The notes under the pieces: model-generated
The model's database searches: none
What the model was told of the DNA's origin: nothing
What the model saw: the letters and a program-made list of their open reading frames with translations, nothing else
NCBI GenBank assembly: GCA_041615815.1
Contig: JBFJCP010000006.1
Location: forward strand, 32,001-96,000
Direction of reading: 5' to 3'
DNA length: 64,000 nucleotides
Source of the DNA: Gemmatimonadales bacterium
Lineage (GTDB): Bacteria; Gemmatimonadota; Gemmatimonadetes; Gemmatimonadales; GWC2-71-9
Position numbers and translations under genes: made by a program
Shown: in pieces, positions 3,761-52,282 of the stretch
Position numbering within the stretch: the stretch's first letter is position 1
Layout of the letters: each line of letters starts with the position of its first letter

Positions 3761-4918
3761 ATGACGCGCGGGCTCGAGGATGTCGAGTTGCTCAGCCGTC
3801 TCGTGGCGTTCGACTCCACGAGTCGGAACAGCAACCTGCCTATCGCAGACTTCATTTGCGACTACCTCGATCGTCGTGGTGTACGGATCGATCGAAACGC
3901 CTCACCGGACGGTACCAAGGCCAATCTCGTTATTGCTGCTGGACCAGAAGATCTCGCCGCTGAGGGCCTCGGTCTCTCCGGGCACATGGATGTGGTTCCG
4001 GCTGACGAGAAGGACTGGAACAGTGATCCATTTTCATTGGCACGCGTCGACGATCGGCTCGTCGGGCGCGGTGCATGCGACATGAAGGGGTTTCTGGCGC
4101 TTGCGATGAATCGGTTCTTCTCGGTCGACCCCGACCGCTTGCGTCGACCCCTTGCGTTGCTCTTCACGTATGACGAGGAGCTCGGGACGCTTGGGGCCAA
4201 GCATTTCGTGGAGACGTGGCCCACTCCGCGGCGTTTGCCCCGTGCAGTCATCGTCGGTGAGCCAACGGAGCTTCGAGTCGTTCGGATGCACAAAGGGTAC
4301 CTCAAGCTCCGCGTTACATTTGTGGGCCGGGCGGCACACAGCGGATATCCACATCTCGGGCGCAACGCCATCGAGCCCGCGGGCCGCGCGATCGTGGCGC
4401 TGAGCGAGTTGCGGCGCGTTCTCGAGACGGAACGACCCCTACACGCCCTGCATTTTCCGGAGGTTCCATTTGCGGCGCTCAACGTCGCCACCATCACCGG
4501 AGGCGTCGCGATCAATGTCATTCCAGACCACTGCCAGATCGAAGTGGGAGTCCGGTTACTTCCCGAGATGCGAAGCCCAGCCATCGTTGGACGGATCCGG
4601 GATACGCTCACCCACGCGCTCGACGATATCGCGTTCGAGCTCACCGTCCTCGGCGAGAGTCCGGCGATGCTGCTCGAGGAGGATGCATCGCTGCATCGAG
4701 CCCTGTGTCAAGCGATGGGGCAAACGGATTCCCAAAGCGTTTCGTTCGCCACAGACGCGGGCTGGTTCCAGAACATTGGGCTCGAATGTGTCATTTTCGG
4801 TCCGGGATCGATTGAAAAGGCGCATCGCGCCAACGAGTACATGCCGCTGGCCGAGTTGCGGTCTGCAAACCTCGTGTTGCATCGCATAGTACACGATTGG
4901 TGCGAGGCGGGAAGCTGA
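3761..4918 (+). CDS. argE: Acetylornithine deacetylase (M20A family)
   Basis: SGHMDVVP, GRGACDMKG, YDEELG, GEPT, AHSG, AHRANE. Confidence 0.85.
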   Translation: MTRGLEDVELLSRLVAFDSTSRNSNLPIADFICDYLDRRGVRIDRNASPDGTKANLVIAAGPEDLAAEGLGLSGHMDVVPADEKDWNSDPFSLARVDDRLVGRGACDMKGFLALAMNRFFSVDPDRLRRPLALLFTYDEELGTLGAKHFVETWPTPRRLPRAVIVGEPTELRVVRMHKGYLKLRVTFVGRAAHSGYPHLGRNAIEPAGRAIVALSELRRVLETERPLHALHFPEVPFAALNVATITGGVAINVIPDHCQIEVGVRLLPEMRSPAIVGRIRDTLTHALDDIAFELTVLGESPAMLLEEDASLHRALCQAMGQTDSQSVSFATDAGWFQNIGLECVIFGPGSIEKAHRANEYMPLAELRSANLVLHRIVHDWCEAGS

Positions 4919-4920
4919 CC

Positions 4921-6231
4921 GTGCCAGAGATTCTGCAGGCGGAGCTGACATGGACGGGAACACGCTTCGAGTCCGATATCGAGGTTGTCGTCTCCGATGA
5001 CGGTCGGATATACGCGGTGCGCAGGGCAAATACGAAGCCGTCCAAGCGACTGGACGGGCAAGCCCTCATGCCCGGCTTCATCAACGCGCATTCGCATGCA
5101 TTTCAGCGAGGGCTACGAGGATTAGGGGAACGATACGCAGAGGGCCCAGGCAGCTTCTGGACCTGGCGAGAGACGATGTATGATTTCATCGCGGGGCTGG
5201 ACGAGAACGCATTCCGAGAACTCTGCTACCAGTGCTTCGAGGAGATGCGCGACGCCGGGATAACGACCGTCGGCGAATTCCATTATCTGCATCACTCCTC
5301 GCACGATGCCGATCATCAGTTTGACGAAGCCGTGTTGGCAGCGGCGGCTGCCGCAGAGATTCGACTGGTCCTTCTCAGCGCCTACTACGCCACTGGCGGT
5401 ATCGGCAAGCCTCTAGAGGGGTCGCAATGCCGGTTCGCAACACACACACCAGAAGCATACTGGCTGCAGATGGACCGGCTGTCTGCGAAGCTTCACCACA
5501 ATACCCAGCGACTTGGCGCGGTCGTTCACAGTATTCGAGCAGCATCACTCGAAGACTGTAGCTCCATCTACCACGAAGCGAGACGGCGAAACCTCGTCTT
5601 CCATATGCATGTCGAAGAGCAGCGTCGGGAGATTGCGGAATCGATTCGTGTATATGGCAAGCCGCCGTTGGAACTGATCCACCACGTTCTGCAATTCCAT
5701 GACGGCATCACCGCCGTTCATTGTACGCACAGTAGTCAGGACCTGCTGCGACGCTTCTTGCAGGTCGGCGGTCTCGTGTGCGTATGTCCGCTCACGGAGG
5801 CAAACCTGGGAGACGGGATCCCCGATCTCGCCGACGTACCGGAAGTGCCCGGACAACTTTGTCTCGGCACCGACTCAAACGCCCGTGTGAGCATGTGGGA
5901 AGAAATGCGATGGGTGGAGTACGGGCAGCGACTGGTGCGAGAAGCCCGCGGCATGTTGAAGCGTGGTAGCGACGTCGCACAGTTGCTTCTCGAGGCCGCG
6001 ACCGCCACGGGTGCTCGGTCGCTAGGAGTGTCGGCTGGTCAAATTGCGCCGGGCTGTTGGGCCGACTTCATGACGATCGATCTGGACCATCCCTCGATTC
6101 GGGGGTGCGATCCCCAACACCTGCTGGATGCTCTGGTATTCGGCGCCGGTAACGAGGTGATCGTAGCGACGAGTGTTGGCGGACGCTGGCGGGACTCCCG
6201 AGCCAAGGCACAAGACCCTACGCCCAAGTGA
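4921..6231 (+). CDS. hutF: Formimidoylglutamate deiminase
   Basis: NAHSHAFQR, FWTWRETMY, VGEFHYLHH, HSIRA, HVEEQ, TEANLGDG, GTDSN; GTG start 2 bp after argE stop. Confidence 0.85.
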   Translation: MPEILQAELTWTGTRFESDIEVVVSDDGRIYAVRRANTKPSKRLDGQALMPGFINAHSHAFQRGLRGLGERYAEGPGSFWTWRETMYDFIAGLDENAFRELCYQCFEEMRDAGITTVGEFHYLHHSSHDADHQFDEAVLAAAAAAEIRLVLLSAYYATGGIGKPLEGSQCRFATHTPEAYWLQMDRLSAKLHHNTQRLGAVVHSIRAASLEDCSSIYHEARRRNLVFHMHVEEQRREIAESIRVYGKPPLELIHHVLQFHDGITAVHCTHSSQDLLRRFLQVGGLVCVCPLTEANLGDGIPDLADVPEVPGQLCLGTDSNARVSMWEEMRWVEYGQRLVREARGMLKRGSDVAQLLLEAATATGARSLGVSAGQIAPGCWADFMTIDLDHPSIRGCDPQHLLDALVFGAGNEVIVATSVGGRWRDSRAKAQDPTPK

Positions 6232-9604: not shown

Positions 9605-9769
9605 CCTTCCCGCCACGCGTTCGTTTCGAAGCAGTGAGACGGGCATCGATTGAACCAACGTTCATACACAGTTCAGCTTCACGAAGACATGGTGTTTCAT
9701 CGTGTTGGATCTCAGGACCGCGGCACGTTTTGCGGCCACCACCTGGGACCCAGTCGGGGGGGTTGGAGC

Positions 9770-11473
9770 ATGCGGATAGGATTCATGGCTTTGCTCGGTC
9801 TGATCGGTGTGGGAGGGTGTGGTGGAGGTGGGGCGGCCGGACCTACGGCGCCCGACGCCCAGGTCTCCTTTGCCTCGCTGGATCTCACGCCCGCGTCGGT
9901 CGCGGTACCCGTCGGCGGCACCGTTCAGCTCGTGGCGACTCCGAGAGACTCGAACGGGAATCCCGTGGGTAGCCTTCCACCGGCCACGTTCTCGAGCAGT
10001 TCTCCAGAAACGGCTGGTGTGGACGACCAAGGTCTTGTGACCGGCAACTTGGTAGGGAGCGCCGTCATTACGGCGAGCGTCACTGCCTCGGGTGTCACCC
10101 ACACCGCGAGCGCAACGGTCGCGGTCACCTCGGGCGAACGGGCTCCGGCAACGGTTACCACCCCCGGCCTTGCCTTTGACCCCGCGTCACTCGCTGTGTC
10201 GGTAGGTGACACGGTCACGTGGGAATTTTCGGGTGCGGTCCACAACGTGACGTTCACTGAGGGAACGCCGCCCGGTGGAAACATTCCCGATCAGCAGATT
10301 GGGAGCGTAGTAGAACGGGAGTTCCCGGATCCCGGGACCTTCAAGTACGAGTGTACCATCCACGCTGGCATGGCGGGGGAAGTGGTGGTCACGACGGGAA
10401 CACCGAGCGTGTTCACCTCGCTCGCCGTGACGCCGACGACCCCCGCCATGGACATTGGACAGAGCGTCCAGTTGACGGTCACGGCGCTGGATCAGTTCGG
10501 CAACGCGATGCCGGGAATGCCAGCACCAACCTTCAGCGTGATCGACGGTTCGATAGCGTCGGTCGACGCCGGCGGGCTCGTGACGGGAGTGAGTGAAGGG
10601 ACCACGACGGTTGTGGCCTCGATCACCCACGACGGTGTGACCCAGACTGCGTCGGCAACGGTGAACGTACGCTCGCCCCAATCGGGCGCCGTGACCGTGA
10701 CAACCCCCAATTTGCGATTCGATCCCCCCACTATATCGATACCAGTTGGCGGGAGCGTGACGTGGCAGTTCTCGGAGGCGGTCCACAACGTGACATTCTC
10801 GGGCGCTGCACCTTCCGGTGGCAGCATCCCGGACCAGGATCCCGGAAACGCCGTTTCACGCTCCTTTACGGCTGCAGGCACCTATGGGTACGAGTGCACC
10901 CGCCATAGCGGGATGGTGGGAGAAGTGGTGGTGGAAGGAGGAGCGGGTCCTTCGGTCTTCAGTTCGCTCGCGCTGTCTCCAATGGAATGGGCGATGCCAC
11001 TAGGTGCGTTCAAGGAATTGACGGCGACGCCCCTCGATCAGAACGGGCTCCCCATTTCGGGACTCCCGGCGCCCTCGTTTACGAGTAGCGATCCGGCCGT
11101 GGCGTTCGTCGACGAGAGCGGCCTGGTCACGACCGGAGGTGAGGGTACCGTCGTTGTCACCGCCGCACTCACCGTCGACGGTGAGACACGAACGGCCACG
11201 ACATCGATCTCGGTGGCGCCGGCCACTGCCGCCGTCGTGCGAATTACTGCGGATTTGTACGAGCCGGATCCGGTCGACATTGCTCCCGGCGGGACGGTGA
11301 TTTGGGAAGTCGGTGGGTCGGCACACAACATGACCTTCGACCTTCCACCTGTCGAGGGAAATATCCCGGATACGGATCCCGGCAATGCCGTTGCCAGGAC
11401 CTTTGCCACCGAGAATGATTACGACTACGAATGCACACTCCATGGCGAGAAAGGACGAGTGCGCGTCCGATGA
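9770..11473 (+). CDS. Lipoprotein with three alternating Ig-like (Big_2) and cupredoxin domains
   Basis: Signal peptide ending VGGC; Big_2 motifs (FSSS.P..A.VD..GLVT); HNVTF..CTIHAGM, HNVTF..CTRHSGM, HNMTF..CTLHGE. Confidence 0.85.
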   Translation: MRIGFMALLGLIGVGGCGGGGAAGPTAPDAQVSFASLDLTPASVAVPVGGTVQLVATPRDSNGNPVGSLPPATFSSSSPETAGVDDQGLVTGNLVGSAVITASVTASGVTHTASATVAVTSGERAPATVTTPGLAFDPASLAVSVGDTVTWEFSGAVHNVTFTEGTPPGGNIPDQQIGSVVEREFPDPGTFKYECTIHAGMAGEVVVTTGTPSVFTSLAVTPTTPAMDIGQSVQLTVTALDQFGNAMPGMPAPTFSVIDGSIASVDAGGLVTGVSEGTTTVVASITHDGVTQTASATVNVRSPQSGAVTVTTPNLRFDPPTISIPVGGSVTWQFSEAVHNVTFSGAAPSGGSIPDQDPGNAVSRSFTAAGTYGYECTRHSGMVGEVVVEGGAGPSVFSSLALSPMEWAMPLGAFKELTATPLDQNGLPISGLPAPSFTSSDPAVAFVDESGLVTTGGEGTVVVTAALTVDGETRTATTSISVAPATAAVVRITADLYEPDPVDIAPGGTVIWEVGGSAHNMTFDLPPVEGNIPDTDPGNAVARTFATENDYDYECTLHGEKGRVRVR

Positions 11474-12567
11474 CGAAGCTATGGATCTTGACACCGGCTC
11501 TCTGTCTCGCTCTCGGTGTGACAGGGATAGAAGCCCAATCGCTGCTCGATCGTCCGCCGAACGTCTCGGGGGATTGGGTCGCCAACGCGGGCACGGTACA
11601 GTTCAACTTTCTCCACCGGTTCATGGTAAGTGACGCCCCCGTCCGGAAGATCAGCAATTTCCCCACTTTCCTGATTGGTGTGGGTCTGCCAGGAGCGCTG
11701 ATGGTTGGCGCGCATTATGCCACCAACTCGACGCTCGCTCCTCGTTTCCCCAACGAGTGGGAGTTCTTTGCCCGTCTGGCGCCATTGTCCGAAGATCGCG
11801 GGGCGCCGATCGATCTCGGGGGTCAAGTCGGATACAACCTGGCTGCAGAAGGCCTGGACGGTGAGCTCTCCGTGGCCAAGCGGGTAGGACCGCTTCGGCT
11901 CATCGCCGCGGCCCGAGTGCTTGCAGATCCCTTTGCAGAGGGCGAGGTGCTCTTCGCCATGGGTGGAGGGGGCACGTTACGAGTTAGCCGGTACCTTGCC
12001 CTCGCCGGTGATATTGCAGGTCTCACCAAGAGGGACGAGGATCGCGGCGAGAAGCCCGCTTGGAGCGCCGGCGTGCATCTTGCCATCCCCAACACCCCGC
12101 ATACGCTATCTCTCCAGGCCACCAACACGAATACAGCGACGCTCCAAGGCCTTTCCCGCGGTGACAGCGAGATTCGTTACGGTTTCGAGTTCACGGTTCC
12201 TGTCACGCTGTCGCGGTTCTTTGGGCGGCGACGCCCGCCACGCAGACCGCAACCGACAGCAGACTCGCTCCGCGCACCTTTGGTTGCCCAGGAGGCGGAC
12301 TCAACGGGCGAAGTGATCGGCACCGTCATTCGCCAAATGAAGTTTCCGCAGAATCGGCTCGAGATCGAAGTGGGAACGACGATCGTGTGGGAAAACGCGG
12401 ATCCACTGGCCCACACCGTCACTGCCGACGACGGCAGCTTTGACTCGGGGTTGATCCAGCCCGGTGAGAAATGGAGCTACACGTTCACGCGGGTTGGGGA
12501 CTACAGCTTCTTCTGTACTCCCCACCCGTTCATGACCGGGATCGTGATTGTACGAGGCACGCCATGA
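11470..12567 (+). CDS. Outer-membrane beta-barrel (DUF5777-like) fused to C-terminal amicyanin-like cupredoxin
   Basis: Signal peptide; amphipathic strands with FLHRF, HTLSLQATN, YGFEF; Arg/Pro linker; AHTVT..CTPHPFM; ATGA overlap with upstream gene. Confidence 0.75.
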   Translation: MTKLWILTPALCLALGVTGIEAQSLLDRPPNVSGDWVANAGTVQFNFLHRFMVSDAPVRKISNFPTFLIGVGLPGALMVGAHYATNSTLAPRFPNEWEFFARLAPLSEDRGAPIDLGGQVGYNLAAEGLDGELSVAKRVGPLRLIAAARVLADPFAEGEVLFAMGGGGTLRVSRYLALAGDIAGLTKRDEDRGEKPAWSAGVHLAIPNTPHTLSLQATNTNTATLQGLSRGDSEIRYGFEFTVPVTLSRFFGRRRPPRRPQPTADSLRAPLVAQEADSTGEVIGTVIRQMKFPQNRLEIEVGTTIVWENADPLAHTVTADDGSFDSGLIQPGEKWSYTFTRVGDYSFFCTPHPFMTGIVIVRGTP

Positions 12568-12947
12568 GGTCGAGACTCTGGGGGATCCTGGCGGCCACCA
12601 TCGTGGCGGCCTGCTTTTCGGAGCGCACCGACACGACGAGTCCACCGCTGCAGGGTACGTGCGACGTTTCGCTTCCAGCGGAGCTGCTCGGATCCACCAT
12701 TGTCGCGATCCGTAACTTCAGCTTTGAGCCGGCCCAAGTGCGGGTCGCAGCCGGTGGGACGGTCACCTGGGTGAACTGTGCCCCGGCGGACGAACCGGCG
12801 CACACGAGTACGTCGGATCAGGGCGTATGGGGGACCGAGCTCCTACCCCCGGGGAGTTTTGCCAGCTTTACCTTCACCCAGGCAGGAGCGTTCCCGTATC
12901 ACTGCGAGCCCCATCCGTTCATGCAGGCAACTGTGGTTGTCCAATAG
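12564..12947 (+). CDS. Small cupredoxin (plastocyanin/amicyanin-like) lipoprotein
   Basis: Lipobox IVAAC; AHTST..CEPHPFM; ATGA overlap. Confidence 0.85.
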   Translation: MRSRLWGILAATIVAACFSERTDTTSPPLQGTCDVSLPAELLGSTIVAIRNFSFEPAQVRVAAGGTVTWVNCAPADEPAHTSTSDQGVWGTELLPPGSFASFTFTQAGAFPYHCEPHPFMQATVVVQ

Positions 12948-12953
12948 GTTGCC

Positions 12954-15194
12954 TCAGAAGCCCATCCGCGTCACGAGGGAGTCGAACCGGGGATCGTTGC
13001 GTACAGTCTCGAGCTTGGGCTCGACCCGGAGATACGCGAGCCAGCCCCGCCGCTCTTCGTAACAGCGATCGAGCCATTGGAAGACCGCGTCGGGATCGCC
13101 GAGCGCAACGTGCAGTAGCACGAACGCCACGGGAGATATGTACCCCTCACTACTGAGTTGCTCGAGCTCGACGAGCAGGCGCTCGGTCTCGGCACGACGG
13201 CCGCGCCGCGCTTCCATGTATCCCCAACCCGCCATAGCGTATGCGGCGGTTTTCTGGGCCGTCGCGATGGCGTCACGGAAGGCGGCTTCCGCCTCTTCAA
13301 ATCGACCCAAGGCCGTGTATACGAGACCCAACACGCTGTGTGTCTCATCGGCTTGGGGATCGATGGCCAGTGCCCGTCGTAAGTGTTCAACGGCTTCTTC
13401 GTGCCGTCCGAGGTAGTAGCAGAGCCACCCCAACCCGCGATGTCCCGACACGGATACGGGATCGAGATCCACCGCCATTCGGGCCTCTTGCAGGGCCTCC
13501 ACACCCCGACCAGTCGCAAGGAGCAACCACGCGAACCACTGTCGGGCGGTGGCGTAGGACGGGTTGAGCTCGATCGCTCTCCGGAATTCACGTTCGGCGG
13601 CGGTCCAGTCCCAATCGTAGATGAAGTTGACCCACGCAAGGGATGTGTGCGCTTCCGCGAGCGTCTCATCCAGCTCGAGGGCCCGGCGTGCCTCGACTTT
13701 CGCCTGCTCCATCCGTTCCGCCACAGGGGAACCCCGATAGTCCACCTGGATGGCATGGGCATCGGACAAGCCGGTGTAGGCCAGGGCGTAATCTGGGTCT
13801 TCTTGGATCGCCTGCTCGAAATACTCGATGGCGCGGAGGATATCCTCTGGGGTCCGGAGGTTCCAGTGGTATCGACCGCGAAGGTATGCGTTGTACGCCT
13901 TGACATTGTCCGTGTATCGCCGCGGCCGAAGTTCGCCGAGATCCCGCCATAAAGTTGTCCGGAGCGTCATGACAATAGTTCGGGTAATCTCATCCTCGAC
14001 CGCGAAAATGTCGTCGACTTCGCGGTCATACCGCTCGGCCCAGAGGTGGCGCCCGTCGGATACGTCGGTGAGCCGAGCCGTGATCCGGAGGCGATTGCCC
14101 GACTGTCGGACGGTTCCCTCCAGCACGGTCGACACGCCCAGTTGCGCACCAATGGCTCGGACGTCTTGCCGGGTTCCCTTAAAGGCGAAGACCGACGTCC
14201 GAGATGCGACGTGTAGTCCCTCGACCTTCGTGAGGGCGTGGATGAGTTCGTCGGTGAGCCCGTCACTCAAGTATTCGTTGTCCGGGTCTGGGCTCGCATT
14301 CTCGAACGGCAGCACAGCAATCATTCGAGTGTTTCGGTCTGCAGCGGCGGATGCAGGAGGATCCGTCGAGGTCAAGGCTTCTGTAAACGCCCGAACGGTG
14401 TCAAAGCGCTGAGCCGGATCCTTGGCCAGCGCTCGAGCGATGACTTGGTCCACCACCAAAGGGACTTCACCCCGCTGCGACCGGACTGATGGTGGTGGCT
14501 GGATGGCGTGCTGGGCCATGGTGGCACGAGCGTTGGGCCCGCGAAACGGTGGTTCGCCGGTCAGCATTTCGAACAAAACGCAGGCCAGGCTGTAGAGATC
14601 GCTTCGGGCGTCCAGCTCCCGGTCTGCCGTCACCTGCTCGGGGCTCATATAGGCAGGCGTCCCAACCGCGAGCCCCGGCTCCGTCAACCGATCCGACCCG
14701 GCTGCGGAGATCGCCGTGGCCACGCCGAAGTCCGTCAGGAGGGGCTGTCCTTCGTTGAGCAAGATGTTCTCGGGCTTGATGTCACGATGCAGCACGTTCC
14801 GACGGTGCGCGTAATCCAGTGCACCGGCTACCGCCAGGGTGATCCGGATCGCATCGTGTATCGGCAGTCGCTTTTTCTCGTTGAGTCGGTCCCTGAGGGA
14901 CTCACACCCAACGAAGGGCATGACGTAGAAGAAGAATCCGTCGCATTCGCCGGAATCATGGAGCGGTAGGATCTGGGGATGGGTTAGCCCAGCGGCTATG
15001 CGAATCTCACGAAGGAACCGTGCGGTCTCGTAACCGGTGACCAGCTCGGGCCTGAGAACCTTGATCGCGACCTCACGACCGTGTTTGACATCTTCGGCCC
15101 GGTAGACGGTCGCCATCGCCCCTCGTCCCACTTCTTCCTGGACGGCATAGCGGTCTCCCAAAGCCGCTCGCAGACGTTCAACCGTGCACTCCAT
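12954..15194 (-). CDS. Ser/Thr protein kinase with TolB-like domain and TPR repeats
   Basis: HRDIKPEN, DFG, GTPAYMSPE; IAVLPFEN..EYLSDGLTDELI; multiple TPRs; ends DPRF. Confidence 0.92.
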   Translation of the reverse strand: MECTVERLRAALGDRYAVQEEVGRGAMATVYRAEDVKHGREVAIKVLRPELVTGYETARFLREIRIAAGLTHPQILPLHDSGECDGFFFYVMPFVGCESLRDRLNEKKRLPIHDAIRITLAVAGALDYAHRRNVLHRDIKPENILLNEGQPLLTDFGVATAISAAGSDRLTEPGLAVGTPAYMSPEQVTADRELDARSDLYSLACVLFEMLTGEPPFRGPNARATMAQHAIQPPPSVRSQRGEVPLVVDQVIARALAKDPAQRFDTVRAFTEALTSTDPPASAAADRNTRMIAVLPFENASPDPDNEYLSDGLTDELIHALTKVEGLHVASRTSVFAFKGTRQDVRAIGAQLGVSTVLEGTVRQSGNRLRITARLTDVSDGRHLWAERYDREVDDIFAVEDEITRTIVMTLRTTLWRDLGELRPRRYTDNVKAYNAYLRGRYHWNLRTPEDILRAIEYFEQAIQEDPDYALAYTGLSDAHAIQVDYRGSPVAERMEQAKVEARRALELDETLAEAHTSLAWVNFIYDWDWTAAEREFRRAIELNPSYATARQWFAWLLLATGRGVEALQEARMAVDLDPVSVSGHRGLGWLCYYLGRHEEAVEHLRRALAIDPQADETHSVLGLVYTALGRFEEAEAAFRDAIATAQKTAAYAMAGWGYMEARRGRRAETERLLVELEQLSSEGYISPVAFVLLHVALGDPDAVFQWLDRCYEERRGWLAYLRVEPKLETVRNDPRFDSLVTRMGF

Positions 15195-31991: not shown

Positions 31992-32027
31992 GGCGGCCAC
32001 TCGGGAGAAAGCCCATCCGAAGGTTAC

Positions 32028-47305: not shown

Positions 47306-49234
47306 ATGAGAGAGTCCGACATGGATCTCCACGCGCAGGTTCCTAGCGGGCCGATCGAGAAGAAGTGGGACCAGCATCGGCAGGATCTCAAGCTCGTGAA
47401 CCCCGCAAACAAGCGGAAGTTCGACATCATCGTGGTCGGGACCGGACTGGCCGGGGCGTCAGCCGCCGCGACGCTTGCTGAGCTCGGCTACAAGGTCAAG
47501 GCATTCTGCTTTCACGACAGCCCCCGCCGTGCCCATAGCATCGCCGCACAGGGAGGGATCAACGCCGCCAAGAATTATCAGAATGATGGCGATAGCGTTT
47601 GGCGGTTGTTCTACGATACGGTGAAAGGGGGAGACTTTCGATCACGCGAAGCGAATGTTTACCGGCTCGCGCAAATCAGCCTCAACATCATCGATCAGTG
47701 CGTAGCGCAAGGCGTCCCGTTTGCCCGGGAGTACGGTGGTCTCCTTGCCAATCGGTCCTTTGGTGGCGCCCAAGTCTCCCGAACGTTCTACGCTCGCGGG
47801 CAAACAGGACAGCAGCTGCTGTTGGGCGCGTATCAAGCACTCGAACGGCAAATCGCTGCCGGCAACGTTGAGATGTTTCCGCGCACCGAAATGCTCGACA
47901 TCGTCGTCGTGGAGGGCAAAGCGCGCGGTATCGTAGTGCGCGATTTGGTGAGCGGCGCGATTAGCTCGCACGCCGGCGACGCCGTGGTCCTGGGTACCGG
48001 CGGTTATAGCAACGTGTATTTCCTTTCGACCAACGCGAAAGGATGCAACGTCACGGCCACTTGGCGCGCTCACAAGCGGGGAGCGGCATTTGCAAATCCC
48101 TGCTTCACACAGATTCACCCCACCTGTATTCCGCCAAGCGGTGAATATCAGTCCAAACTCACATTGATGAGCGAGTCGTTACGAAACGATGGGCGGATCT
48201 GGGTGCCAACCAGGAAAGGCGACGCACGGCCTGCCAATCAGATTCCGGAAGGTGACCGCGACTACTACTTGGAACGGCTCTACCCGAGCTTTGGCAATCT
48301 CACGCCTCGGGACATAGCCTCTCGAAGAGCCAAGGATGCCTGTGATGAGGGCCGGGGAGTTGGTGAGACTGGCGTCGGCGTCTATCTGGATTTCCGAGAC
48401 GCCATCGAGCGACTTGGCCGTGGCGTTATCGAAGATCGCTATGGCAACCTCTTCGACATTTACCAACAGATCACCGGCGAAGATCCCTATCACGTACCGA
48501 TGCGGATCTATCCCGCGCCTCATTACACGATGGGGGGATTGTGGGTGGATTACAATTTGATGAGCACCATTCCCGGGCTCTACGTGATCGGCGAGGCGAA
48601 CTTCTCGGATCACGGTGCCAACCGTCTGGGCGCCAGTGCGCTCATGCAGGGTCTCGCCGATGGATACTTCGTGCTTCCGTACACCATTGGTGATTATCTG
48701 GCCCAGACCGACCTCGCGAAGCTGGACGAAAAGCACGCGCAATTCCGGACGGTGGAAGGTGAAGTTTCGAGCCGTGTCAGCAAACTGTTGTCTGTCAACG
48801 GATCCCGATCGGTGGATTCGTTCCACAAGGAGTTGGGACGACTCATGTGGGATCGCTGCGGAATGTCTCGCACTCGCGCAGGGCTCGAGAGCGCCATCGA
48901 GCGCATTGGCGGGTTACGCGACGAGTTTTGGAGCGATGTCAGAATCACCGGGTCGGCCGGAGACCTGAATCAGACCTTGGAGAAAGCCGGGCGCGTGGCC
49001 GATTTCCTCGAGTTCGCCGAACTCATGTGTCACGATGCCCTGGACCGAGAGGAGTCGTGCGGAGCCCATTTTCGTGAGGAATACCAAACGCCGGAGGGGG
49101 AGGCAAGACGCAACGACGAGCAGTACGCGTATGTCGCAACCTGGGAGTTCGCCGGGGTGGGGTGCCGACCCCGTCTCCTGAAAGAGCCACTGACCTTCGA
49201 ATACGTGGCTCTTGCCCAGCGGAGCTACAAGTAA
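47306..49234 (+). CDS. sdhA: Succinate dehydrogenase/fumarate reductase flavoprotein
   Basis: [37 protein letters not shown]; alternative start 47321. Confidence 0.95.
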
Positions 49235-49989
49235 TGAATCTCGTCTTGCATGTGTGGCGACAATCGCGGCCGGGGGATCGCGGCCGGTTCGAACGCCATG
49301 AAGCCAACGATGTCAGCCCCAACATGTCTTTCCTGGAGTTGCTGGACGTCATCAACGAGCGTCTCGTGGCGAGCGGCGAAGAGCCGATTGCGTTCGAGCA
49401 CGACTGTCGAGAAGGTATCTGCGGTTCCTGCGGCATAGTCATCAACGGCTCTGCCCACGGACCGCTGCAAGGCGTGACCGCCTGTCAGCTTCACTTGCGT
49501 TCGTTCCGTGACGGAAACCAGATATGGGTGGAGCCGTGGCGCGCCAGGGCCTTTCCAGTATTGAAGGACCTGGTAGTGGATCGGAGTGCGCTGGACCGGA
49601 TTATCCAGGCGGGTGGCTTCATCTCCGTACGCACGGGGAGCGCACCAGACGCGAACGCCATCCCCATCCCCAAACCGAATGCGGATTTGGCCTTCGACGC
49701 CGCGACTTGCATTGGCTGCGGTGCGTGCGTCGCGGCATGCCCCAACGCCTCGGCCATGCTCTTCACGGCGGCCAAGGTGAGCCACTTGGCCCTGCTTCCC
49801 CAGGGCCAGCCCGAGCGCTTGCACCGCGTGGCCTCCATGGTGGCCCAGATGGACACGGAAGGGTTCGGGAACTGCACCAACCACGGTGAGTGCCAAGTCG
49901 CCTGTCCGAAAGAAATCAGTGTCGACCACATTGCGTGGCTGAATCGAGATTTGGTCCGGGCGTTGGCCCTCGGGCCGGTGGCCGAGTAG
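49234..49989 (+). CDS. sdhB: Succinate dehydrogenase iron-sulfur subunit
   Basis: [38 protein letters not shown] overlap. Confidence 0.95.
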
Positions 49990-50645: not shown

Positions 50646-51332
50646 ATGTCGGATCATTGGGCGACCAAACTATCTGCCTATCTCGATGACGAGCTAGCGC
50701 CTGAGGACGCGGCGGCGCTGGAGGCTCACCTCACGCGCTGCGAGGAATGTGTGACAGCGCTCGGGGAGTTACGGGCAGTGATGGCGTGGGCCGACTCCTA
50801 TCCCGGACGAGCCCCGGCGACGGACGTATGGCCGCGGATAAGCGCTCGGCTTCACCACACGCGTGGTGGGCCCGTGGATCTTCTCAACGAGCGCAGCGGC
50901 AGACCTCCTTGGCTCATTGGAGCACTGCCGAAGGCTCTGGCGGCCGGCATCGCGCTGATGGCGGTGGCCGGGGGCAGCTGGCTGCTTGGCCGCGCCAGTG
51001 CACCTGCGGTTCCCGCGCTGGCGGTGATTCCCGTGGCCGAGATGCGGGGAGTACCGTCGACTGACGTGACGATGTTACAGGCCGAGAAATATGCCGCGGC
51101 CATTGCGGAGCTCGAGATGGCCTTGAGTGCTCGGACGGCCGGGCTCGATTCCGGTACTGTCCGAATTCTCAACGAGAAACTGCATGTGATCGATCGCGCC
51201 ATTGCGGACGCGCGGAGGGCGCTGGCGTCGGATCCGAACAGCGCGTATTTGGCGCAGCACTTCACGAGGATGATGCGACACAAGCTGATCCTGTTGCGGA
51301 ACGCACCCAGGTTCACGGTGACGCAGGGTTAG
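50646..51332 (+). CDS. Zinc-finger (zf-HC2) transmembrane anti-sigma factor
   Basis: LSAYLDDEL, HLTRCEEC, TM helix, C-terminal helical domain. Confidence 0.85.
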   Translation: MSDHWATKLSAYLDDELAPEDAAALEAHLTRCEECVTALGELRAVMAWADSYPGRAPATDVWPRISARLHHTRGGPVDLLNERSGRPPWLIGALPKALAAGIALMAVAGGSWLLGRASAPAVPALAVIPVAEMRGVPSTDVTMLQAEKYAAAIAELEMALSARTAGLDSGTVRILNEKLHVIDRAIADARRALASDPNSAYLAQHFTRMMRHKLILLRNAPRFTVTQG

Positions 51333-51346
51333 GGGAGGATTGAACC

Positions 51347-52282
51347 ATGTTGATGACGATAGCCGGTGGCATTATGGCCGCGCTTACACTCGTTCAGCAG
51401 ACGGATACGACCTTTGCGGTGGACCCTGCCGCACGGATCAATGTGAGCAACTACGCAGGTGGAATCGTCGTGCGGACCTGGACTCGGAATGCCGTGCGTG
51501 TCCAGGCCAGCCACTCCAGGCGGGACCAGATCATCGTCGATCGGGCAGGAGCCGAGGTCCGGATCCGGTCCGCCAATTGGCGGCGCGACGCAGACCACTT
51601 CGACGTCCAGATCGATGGTCCCGATCGGGTCGGCGTACAGATCCGGTCTCCGCGACGGCCATCGATCATCGACTATGAGATCACGGTTCCCGCTAGCGCA
51701 CCTCTCGATCTCGGTGGCCCCTATACCGACGTGACCGCCGAGGGAGTCAACGGGGAAGTGAGCATCAAAGTGAATGAAGGGGACGTCTCTATCCGCGGCG
51801 GCTCGGGTAGAGTGACTGCTCAAACCGTCGAAGGTGACATCACGGTCCGGCGTGCCCAGGGGAACATCCGACTCGTATCGGTGGATGGCGATATCACCTT
51901 GGAGGACGCCAGCGGGGATATCCTGGCGGAGACCACCGACGGGGAGATCCGGATGGTGAATATCAACTCATCCAATGTCGAGGCCTTCTCCGTGGACGGC
52001 GACGTGTGGTTCTCTGGTACGATCCAAGCGCGGGGGCGATACAGCTTCAACACGCACGACGGAGATGTGACGGTCTACGTGCCTCGCGCCACGAGCGCGC
52101 GGATCACCGTCGCCACCTTTGACGGGGAATTCAGTACCGACTTTCCCTTCACGCTGGACACGCGGAGGGTCCGAGGACACCGGTTCACGTTTTCCGTGGG
52201 CTCGGGGGCCGCCGAAATCGACGTCGAAGCGTTCGACGGCGACATCGAACTGCGGTACCTAGAGCGAAGACCAGCCCGATAA
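51347..52282 (+). CDS. DUF4097 beta-strand repeat (putative adhesin) protein
   Basis: Signal peptide; repeated T/S-x-D/E-G-D-I/V motifs. Confidence 0.85.
   Translation: MLMTIAGGIMAALTLVQQTDTTFAVDPAARINVSNYAGGIVVRTWTRNAVRVQASHSRRDQIIVDRAGAEVRIRSANWRRDADHFDVQIDGPDRVGVQIRSPRRPSIIDYEITVPASAPLDLGGPYTDVTAEGVNGEVSIKVNEGDVSIRGGSGRVTAQTVEGDITVRRAQGNIRLVSVDGDITLEDASGDILAETTDGEIRMVNINSSNVEAFSVDGDVWFSGTIQARGRYSFNTHDGDVTVYVPRATSARITVATFDGEFSTDFPFTLDTRRVRGHRFTFSVGSGAAEIDVEAFDGDIELRYLERRPAR

Follow-up and report, generated by a model that had tools for sequence, protein, structure and literature searches.

A conserved β-barrel-cupredoxin operon of Gemmatimonadota as a candidate outer-membrane redox station

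The 64,000 nucleotide stretch analysed here (the window; positions 32,001 to 96,000, forward strand, of contig JBFJCP010000006.1 in assembly GCA_041615815.1, Gemmatimonadales bacterium) contains an operon of three genes, called A, B and C below, that are coupled by ATGA overlaps at 11470–11473 (A/B) and 12564–12567 (B/C). Gene A encodes a lipoprotein of alternating Ig-like and cupredoxin domains, gene B a β-barrel fused to a cupredoxin, and gene C a lipoprotein cupredoxin; all are exported, as the initial annotation had it (the signal peptide of gene B was judged by eye from the sequence), and the order and coupling of the genes are also as described there. The operon includes no oxidase, dehydrogenase, cytochrome c or Cu-efflux gene, again as first described, and no multicopper oxidase; its flanking genes are Ser/Thr kinases on the opposite strand (Pfam), and none of the three proteins has a CxxCH motif. 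The module is real and conserved and appears to be undescribed, and the exchange of its copper domain for a haem domain in relatives makes a redox module that is widespread at outer membranes a better reading than a long copper wire.

The AlphaFold2 model of gene B (118-row alignment; predicted local distance difference test score, pLDDT, 87.8; predicted template modelling score, pTM, 0.81) has twelve long strands at residues 42–246; after these come a short C-terminal helix, a linker of low confidence and the cupredoxin. Its best fold neighbours are 12-stranded outer-membrane barrels: GalP (Z 17.8, root-mean-square deviation (rmsd) 2.5 Å over 177 residues), FapF (Z 17.6, 3.5 Å over 203 residues), KdgM (Z 17.4), NanC (Z 16.4) and COG4313 (Z 16.1), of which the top three are tied, and likeness of fold says nothing about function. 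Intimin and autotransporter barrels (Z 14–16), LpxR (Z 14.8), PcoB (Z 11.4, 4.1 Å over 172 residues) and OMPLA (Z 11.3) are further neighbours. The model is of the closed type, with Z 15–18 against 12-stranded barrels, and strand registers propagated round the barrel close with consistent parity, in keeping with the outer-membrane barrel first proposed for the middle protein.

At E ≤ 0.001, 2339 of 7056 candidates are related to the barrel region, so the observation is not a chance one. Gene B does not match Pfam DUF5777 (PF19089) at its cut-off of 23.1, and a six-frame search for PF19089 found nothing in the genome or in 14 control genomes; 27 of the 118 aligned barrel members match DUF5777 at E ≤ 1 (best 1.3e-6), the distant member P0261 scores above the cut-off, and DUF5777 clusters top the Atlas ranking for gene B (0.96). 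An hhalign comparison of the barrel profile with 11 canonical DUF5777 members (probability 49%, E 1.7e-4, 194 columns) pairs up an H-R-F motif in strand 1, a His before strand 11 and a G-F in the last strand. Both groups are also associated with cytochrome c or cupredoxin. We take the gene B barrel to be a probable sister subfamily of DUF5777 rather than a proven member; canonical members differ in that their chain ends with the last strand or they are paired with YceI. A search of PDB sequences with the barrel profile gave a best E of 0.51 and nothing related, 41 pattern matches on viral contigs included none that could be confirmed, and plasmids searched with P0261 gave no match. Among 5779 candidates for longer fusions (640–2000 amino acids) there were two matches; P0132 (1045 amino acids, TonB-dependent receptor plus barrel-cupredoxin) was rejected as a probable read-through of adjacent genes, its barrel part retaining its own signal peptide. 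A match of the barrel hidden Markov model at 51347–52282 of the window (E 0.0024, in two short pieces) was dismissed as unrelated.

The most informative variation in the family is at its C-terminal end. The C-terminal domains of 334 full-length barrels from protein searches were sorted with Pfam support, and 265 of these barrels end in a cupredoxin (with the full ligand pattern in 260), while in 21 the place of the cupredoxin is taken by a class I cytochrome c. The two kinds of domain are interchangeable one-electron carriers, as with plastocyanin and cytochrome c6, so the replacement of one by the other argues that the tethered domain serves electron transfer and not copper handling; this is the strongest evidence we have, it favours the electron-transfer reading of the initial annotation over copper buffering, and a one-electron carrier is the most likely role of the tethered domain. 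Four canonical DUF5777 clusters are also fused to cytochrome c, three in 93–100% of their members (commonest taxon Acidobacteriota) and one in 77% (Myxococcota), and six of 20 canonical DUF5777 loci have a carrier or YceI within 1.5 kb, namely a C-x4-C-H cytochrome-like lipoprotein (five loci; PSCyt1 in three), YceI (five) or a cupredoxin (two). The small C-x4-C-H lipoproteins (PSCyt1-like) lie at loci L219, L220, L221, L230 and L232, four of which also have YceI. A metagenome scan with the cytochrome-fused alignment returned cytochrome c matches only (78 loci, query residues 249 onward) and no barrel neighbourhoods.

Of 301 Gemmatimonadota genomes that are at least 90% complete, 86 have a match to the barrel profile (the window's genome and G182, a genome flagged as unpublished, are among the 86), and the named close relatives of the barrel are nearly all Gemmatimonadota. 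Among close loci (the best 80 of 304 found) the barrel-cupredoxin fusion is present in 77, the remaining three being cut by contig ends, and a cupredoxin gene of the gene C type lies directly downstream in 69 of the 72 with enough flank; the fusion is conserved, usually together with gene C. The chain of the gene A type is far less constant, with 20 of 40 usable close loci (12 of the 80, in which the codon-model gene call missed the barrel gene, were left out of this count) and two of 37 phylum-wide loci, these being the usable ones of 40 picked from the profile matches with a preference for long contigs; in 12 of the 37 the fusion stands alone with no lipoprotein partner. No oxidase, dehydrogenase, copper transporter, Cu ATPase, multicopper oxidase or Cus gene recurs beside the barrel in 120 loci. 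The genes that do recur encode a CHRD lipoprotein (13 loci) and regulators of the AraC (6) and MarR (11) kinds, or are syntenic genes specific to a lineage. The CHRD-domain lipoprotein (L104:8977–9492 and 12 other loci) is often divergently transcribed beside the module, and a Cyc2-like cytochrome-porin, with a CxxCH behind its signal peptide and a weak match to Porin_4, lies near the module in four loci, for example at L116:13590–14780.

Table 1. Features of the A-B-C operon (positions in the window; residue numbers are those of the respective protein)
Feature	Position	Strand	Description
Gene A	9770..11473	+	567 aa; lipoprotein (lipobox Cys17, Gly-rich tether), 3x (Ig Big_2-like + cupredoxin); accessory, variable
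Cupredoxin A1	10145..10396	+	Ligands H158 C195 H198 M201
Cupredoxin A2	10685..10939	+	Ligands H339 C376 H379 M382
Cupredoxin A3	11228..11470	+	H519 C555 H558; axial Met missing from the shortened loop CTLHGEK
Gene B	11470..12567	+	365 aa; signal peptide, putatively plugged 12-stranded DUF5777-like barrel, linker, type-1 cupredoxin; conserved core
N-terminal segment, residues 23–41	11536..11592	+	Conserved; putative lumen plug, from covariation
Twelve transmembrane strands, residues 42–246	11593..12207	+	From predicted model, conservation and face assignment
His49, F-x-H-R-F motif, strand 1	11614..11616	+	In 446/454 sequences; probably lipid-facing; aligns with invariant His of canonical DUF5777
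His211, P-x-T-P-H motif, start of strand 11	12100..12102	+	In 445/454 sequences; probably lipid-facing, near periplasmic side
Arg/Pro/Ala linker, low-complexity	12223..12312	+	pLDDT 63–74
Fused cupredoxin of gene B	12313..12555	+	CTPHPFM; ligands H315 C349 H352 M355
Gene C	12564..12947	+	127 aa; lipoprotein cupredoxin (Cys17), CEPHPFM; ligands H80 C114 H117 M120

All five cupredoxins of the initial annotation are present, but the full type-1 ligand set His-Cys-His-Met, with the spacing Cys-x2-His-x2-4-Met, is found in only four of them, domain A3 having no Met (Table 1). The A3 loop is identical in the closest relatives (L002 and L021), and the last chain domain also lacks Met at loci L022, L067, L073 and L086. 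One contig of run X5 covers the full length of the window and may be its source; contigs from a separate study (X6) span 10310–13090 with about 1% differences. The "amicyanin-type" label first given to the gene B domain stands as a resemblance of fold and ligand loop, which these domains share with amicyanin, plastocyanin and halocyanin (amicyanin is the best Foldseek match of the gene B domain, E 2e-7), but not as a family assignment: A, B and C are below the curated cut-offs (84, 48.7 and 47 bits, respectively, against 110.2 for amicyanin TIGR02657), they are membrane-tethered or lipid-anchored, and the operon has no methylamine dehydrogenase genes. Gene C has an extra pair of cysteines, Cys33 and Cys72, that likely forms a disulphide.

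Covariation among 454 barrels (effective number 243) recovers the strand pairings and ties residues 24–38 to lumen-facing positions (pairs L25-H203, S24-A179, D35-G117, W36-T242, A38-M78, R28-E132 and N31-R50), which suggests that the conserved N-terminal segment plugs the barrel lumen. The lumen also has conserved acidic residues (E96, E98, D130, E132, D181 and E240), and R28, R50, R102 and R149 are conserved. On one side of the barrel wall all twelve strands are more hydrophobic than on the other (only slightly so in strands 7 and 9), and His49, His211 and Asn219 are on that hydrophobic side, so that by strand alternation and covariation the two histidines probably face the lipid. Both are present in 443 of the 454 sequences and both absent in six, with one lost in five, and both align with invariant histidines of canonical DUF5777; on the lipid-facing wall, His49 and His211 are a candidate cofactor or substrate site. 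In ideal barrel geometry the best register puts them 11 Å from each other, almost one above the other in the direction of the membrane normal, and the next two put them 16 and 22 Å apart.

Porins with an even number of strands have both termini in the periplasm in the standard topology, according to the cited section of PMC8406198, so with twelve strands both termini of the gene B barrel, and with them the fused cupredoxin, should be periplasmic. The linker between the two is Ala/Pro-rich, unconserved and 10–116 residues long (median 26) in the 265 fusions, and would act as a flexible leash. The barrel and its own cupredoxin, two parts of one protein joined in a complex prediction from a self-built alignment with no interface given, scored 0.52 against 0.06 for the best control, the runs agreeing in at least 80% of contacts with a partner pLDDT of at least 90. 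The mark for such scores is reached by 116 of 157 solved and two of 215 mismatched pairs, and at scores of 0.60 or less by 18 of the 157 solved pairs and both of the mismatched ones; the prediction thus weakly supports docking of the barrel with its own cupredoxin.

The gene A model (19-row alignment, pLDDT 85.4) has six well folded domains, which with the Pfam matches (Big_2, E 2.8e-18; Copper-bind, E 2.3e-24) agrees with the threefold Ig-cupredoxin lipoprotein originally described; its pTM of 0.39 means that no fixed arrangement of the domains is predicted. Fold searches matched it to no more than one Ig or cupredoxin domain at a time, and the Ig domains resemble LigA, S-layer and intimin repeats. 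The chains at other loci hold two to five cupredoxins, and Met is missing in 20 of 36 first domains. Some first-domain loops, such as CSRHDGDHGG, put a His at the position of the axial Met, as in red-copper nitrosocyanin, and others are without any axial ligand (chains at L028, L038, L040–L043, L049, L050, L055, L078, L084, L087 and L111). In cupredoxins both termini are found at the pole that faces away from the copper, and one Ig domain spans about 4 nm, so the copper sites of gene A would be side branches several nm apart and far beyond tunnelling range. The haems of MtrA are 3.9–6.5 Å apart by the figures cited in PMC8406198. A long copper wire is therefore unlikely and a tethered pool of carriers more plausible; the Ig-spaced rod that the initial annotation proposed as a conduit is not supported, its chain being optional and without fixed geometry, its ligands often non-canonical and its steps too long.

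Taking the gene structure, folds, conservation and carrier swap as the programs return them, and the periplasmic carrier, the plug and the outward histidines as deduced above, we tentatively favour a redox role in which the operon is an outer-membrane redox station served by periplasmic carriers. The plugged 12-stranded barrel of gene B would have its functional site at the histidine pair on the lipid-facing wall, where a metal, haem, a quinone-like molecule or a membrane-soluble substrate might bind. The C-terminal cupredoxin, hanging in the periplasm on its leash, would dock transiently and move single electrons to or from this site. The lipoprotein cupredoxin C, and chain A where it is present, would be further carriers or an electron reservoir, and would connect the barrel with periplasmic oxidases or donors whose genes lie elsewhere. 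Possible electron sinks in the genome are four COX1-family matches and one NosZ match. A bolder version, which we think rather unlikely, is that DUF5777-like barrels are redox proteins themselves, the stacked lipid-facing histidines binding haem or metal within one barrel or between barrels and relaying electrons that pass between the periplasmic carrier on one side and, on the other, the outer leaflet or substrates soluble in the membrane; if true, this would be a β-barrel counterpart of a membrane b-type cytochrome, with exchangeable copper and haem carriers across several phyla.

Several observations weigh against the redox station. Eight representatives of the cytochrome fusions group in one clade, with cupredoxin-fused barrels and short ones around it (SH-aLRT, the Shimodaira-Hasegawa-like approximate likelihood ratio test, 99, in a quick tree of 122 rows), and by this tree the swap within the subfamily is a single event. 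Among the 334 full-length barrels, 35 have only a short tail (many of these may be contig-cut) and 13 have some other tail, and 14 of the 20 canonical DUF5777 loci have neither a carrier nor YceI within 1.5 kb. The 120 loci show no conserved catalytic or respiratory partner beside the barrel, and the barrel does not track nosZ, which is present in 36 of 86 barrel genomes and 81 of 215 others (Fisher p 0.52, kin not independent; G182 included). Covariation between barrel and cupredoxin has no standout (the best z, 5.1, is among scattered pairs, and within-domain values are 9–14), which weighs against fixed docking. The outward orientation of the histidines is deduced from alternation and covariation rather than from coordinates, and the register between strands 12 and 1 is weakly determined (scores 3.5, 2.9 and 2.0).

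An unlikely alternative is a copper analogue of Cyc2, in which Fe(II), Mn(II) or a similar small reductant would pass into the pore, the cupredoxin at its periplasmic mouth would oxidise it, and A and C would form a conduit that relays the electrons inward or outward. Cyc2, as portrayed in the cited parts of Keffer et al. 2021 (PMC8406198) and of a review (PMC13741234), likewise combines one outer-membrane barrel with one single-electron carrier that is proposed to be periplasmic, and so is a works-like analogue; the carrier fusion and its cytochrome swap, the KdgM, NanC and GalP solute porins among the fold neighbours (Z 16.4–17.8, rmsd 2.4–2.8 Å over 167–177 residues), the acidic lumen residues and the docking prediction all fit such a scheme. 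However, the same account gives Cyc2 16 strands, an N-terminal c-type haem and a home in iron oxidisers (PMC8406198), whereas gene B has 12 strands, a C-terminal type-1 copper, a long variable linker, a putative N-terminal plug and the histidine pair, with no CxxCH and no sequence relationship that we could find. A carrier poised at an open pore fits poorly with a lumen that seems to be filled by residues 24–38, with lumen acids matched by conserved arginines as in a plug-holding network, with the unconserved linker, with a chain A that is optional and has no fixed geometry, and with phylum-wide loci where the fusion stands alone. MtrAB, PioAB and MtoAB also have a barrel and a redox partner in one operon, but theirs is a 26-stranded barrel threaded by a decahaem protein (in the portions cited of PMC8406198), and gene B has no multihaem partner; a 12-stranded plugged barrel, we would argue, cannot hold a cupredoxin in its lumen. 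"Haem-free", as the initial annotation had it, is true of the operon but not of its host: 37 open reading frames of the genome have at least two CxxCH motifs, one 36%-identical match is to a Cyc2-like cytochrome-porin (contig C36, about 4411–5391), and by these sequences the host is not short of haem conduits. Eight open reading frames with 8–18 CxxCH motifs each lie on contig C20 at about 55770–88602 and are a possible multihaem conduit.

Copper uptake, buffering or detoxification is also improbable. The barrel would pass or bind Cu through the histidine pair and the cupredoxins would store or chaperone it, as do the cupredoxin-fold Cu-tolerance proteins CopI and CupA (described in the cited part of PMC7558416), and PcoB among the fold neighbours and two to five tandem domains with frequently altered ligands, as storage would allow, are consistent with this. 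PcoAB, in the sections cited of He et al. 2017 (PMC5566968), pairs a 10–12-stranded outer-membrane barrel with a periplasmic copper redox protein, and is there proposed, on bioinformatics and not experiment, as a copper analogue of porin-cytochrome complexes. The A-B-C operon differs in having no multicopper oxidase and only single type-1 carriers, its barrel is merely fold-similar to PcoB, and it is not a copper-resistance operon. A cytochrome c replacement cannot serve copper binding, Cu ATPase, multicopper oxidase and Cus genes are not among the recurring neighbours, and in 65 upstream regions patterns for Fur, CRP, FNR, CueR and CsoR (consensus sequences) are not enriched, with one CueR-like site against 0.98 expected and four CsoR-like sites against 5.7.

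Still more doubtful is a translocon or anchor that shows carriers on the cell surface in the manner of FapF, Slam or inverse autotransporters, chain A projecting copper sites outward. FapF is a top fold match, intimin and autotransporter barrels are not far behind, the partners are lipoproteins with Gly-rich tethers, and the Ig domains of A resemble surface-protein repeats. The layout of an inverse autotransporter (type Ve) is an N-terminal 12-stranded barrel with a C-terminal domain, and gene B has this layout too, but covariation puts its lumen contact in the N-terminal segment and not in the unconserved C-terminal linker, canonical DUF5777 proteins stop at the last strand, and 12 of the 37 phylum-wide loci have no lipoprotein partner to export. 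Least probable is a wall-side lipid-modifying enzyme, with carriers that are regulatory or incidental, that uses an outward His (with N219 or a loop Ser/Thr) like OMPLA and LpxR, whose catalytic His sits on the barrel wall and which are 12-stranded fold neighbours of gene B: N219, T224 and S229 are conserved (in 450, 412 and 422 of the 454 sequences) and YceI lipid carriers lie beside five of 20 canonical DUF5777 genes, but a hydrolase would have no need of the electron carriers that are repeatedly fused to the barrel, and His49 and Asn219 are 11–20 Å apart depending on register and about 20 Å apart in the best one (ideal geometry). The lipid-peroxyl detoxification system LcoA-BcnA, in the cited part of Naguib et al. 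2022 (PMC9113575), has a membrane redox protein and a lipocalin that act on envelope lipids, and canonical DUF5777 loci carry YceI; LcoA, however, is a cytochrome b561 and not a barrel (PMC9113575), neither b561 nor YceI is in the A-B-C operon, and YceI (PF04264) was not found in the host genome, which is 95.7% complete (the control found it in 5 of 14).

A few further features of the locus and its relatives were noted. A palindrome, TGAAC-n4-GTTCA, lies at 9651–9664, 105 bp upstream of gene A; it resembles what we take to be a LexA-type box, is found in the window alone among 65 upstream regions, has three copies in the genome and may be due to chance. Another, TGTCnCG-n3-CGnGACA, is present in about 22 of 98 upstream regions, about 200–330 bp before the first gene, and is absent from the window; its carriers are nearly all Longimicrobium or Longimicrobiaceae (L028, L033, L034, L036, L038, L041–L044, L049, L050, L055, L057, L058, L060, L063, L071, L075, L076, L078, L084, L087 and L111), and it is a candidate operator for a putative regulator. 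Elsewhere in the window, 47306–49989 contains succinate dehydrogenase/fumarate reductase-like flavoprotein and iron-sulphur genes, and 50646–52282 an anti-sigma-like gene and, after it, one for a secreted repeat protein (all named by eye).

A literature search that had subscription journals and supplements outside its scope found no paper that describes the module or names DUF5777, and the operon is not a member of the Cyc2, MtrAB or PcoAB systems, in keeping with the first impression that it is not a described system. New here are the putative lumen plug, the histidine pair and the counts that show the chain to be optional. To our knowledge, known outer-membrane electron traffic relies on haem inside 16–26-stranded barrels. 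A small plugged barrel that takes either blue copper or cytochrome c, and that more than one in four of the sampled genomes of a phylum common in soil and sediment encode, would mean that a redox function of the envelope has been overlooked. It would also be the first role for the uncharacterised DUF5777 group. The system is directly testable: it needs a single protein of 38 kDa, its cofactor is coloured and two histidines are ready targets.

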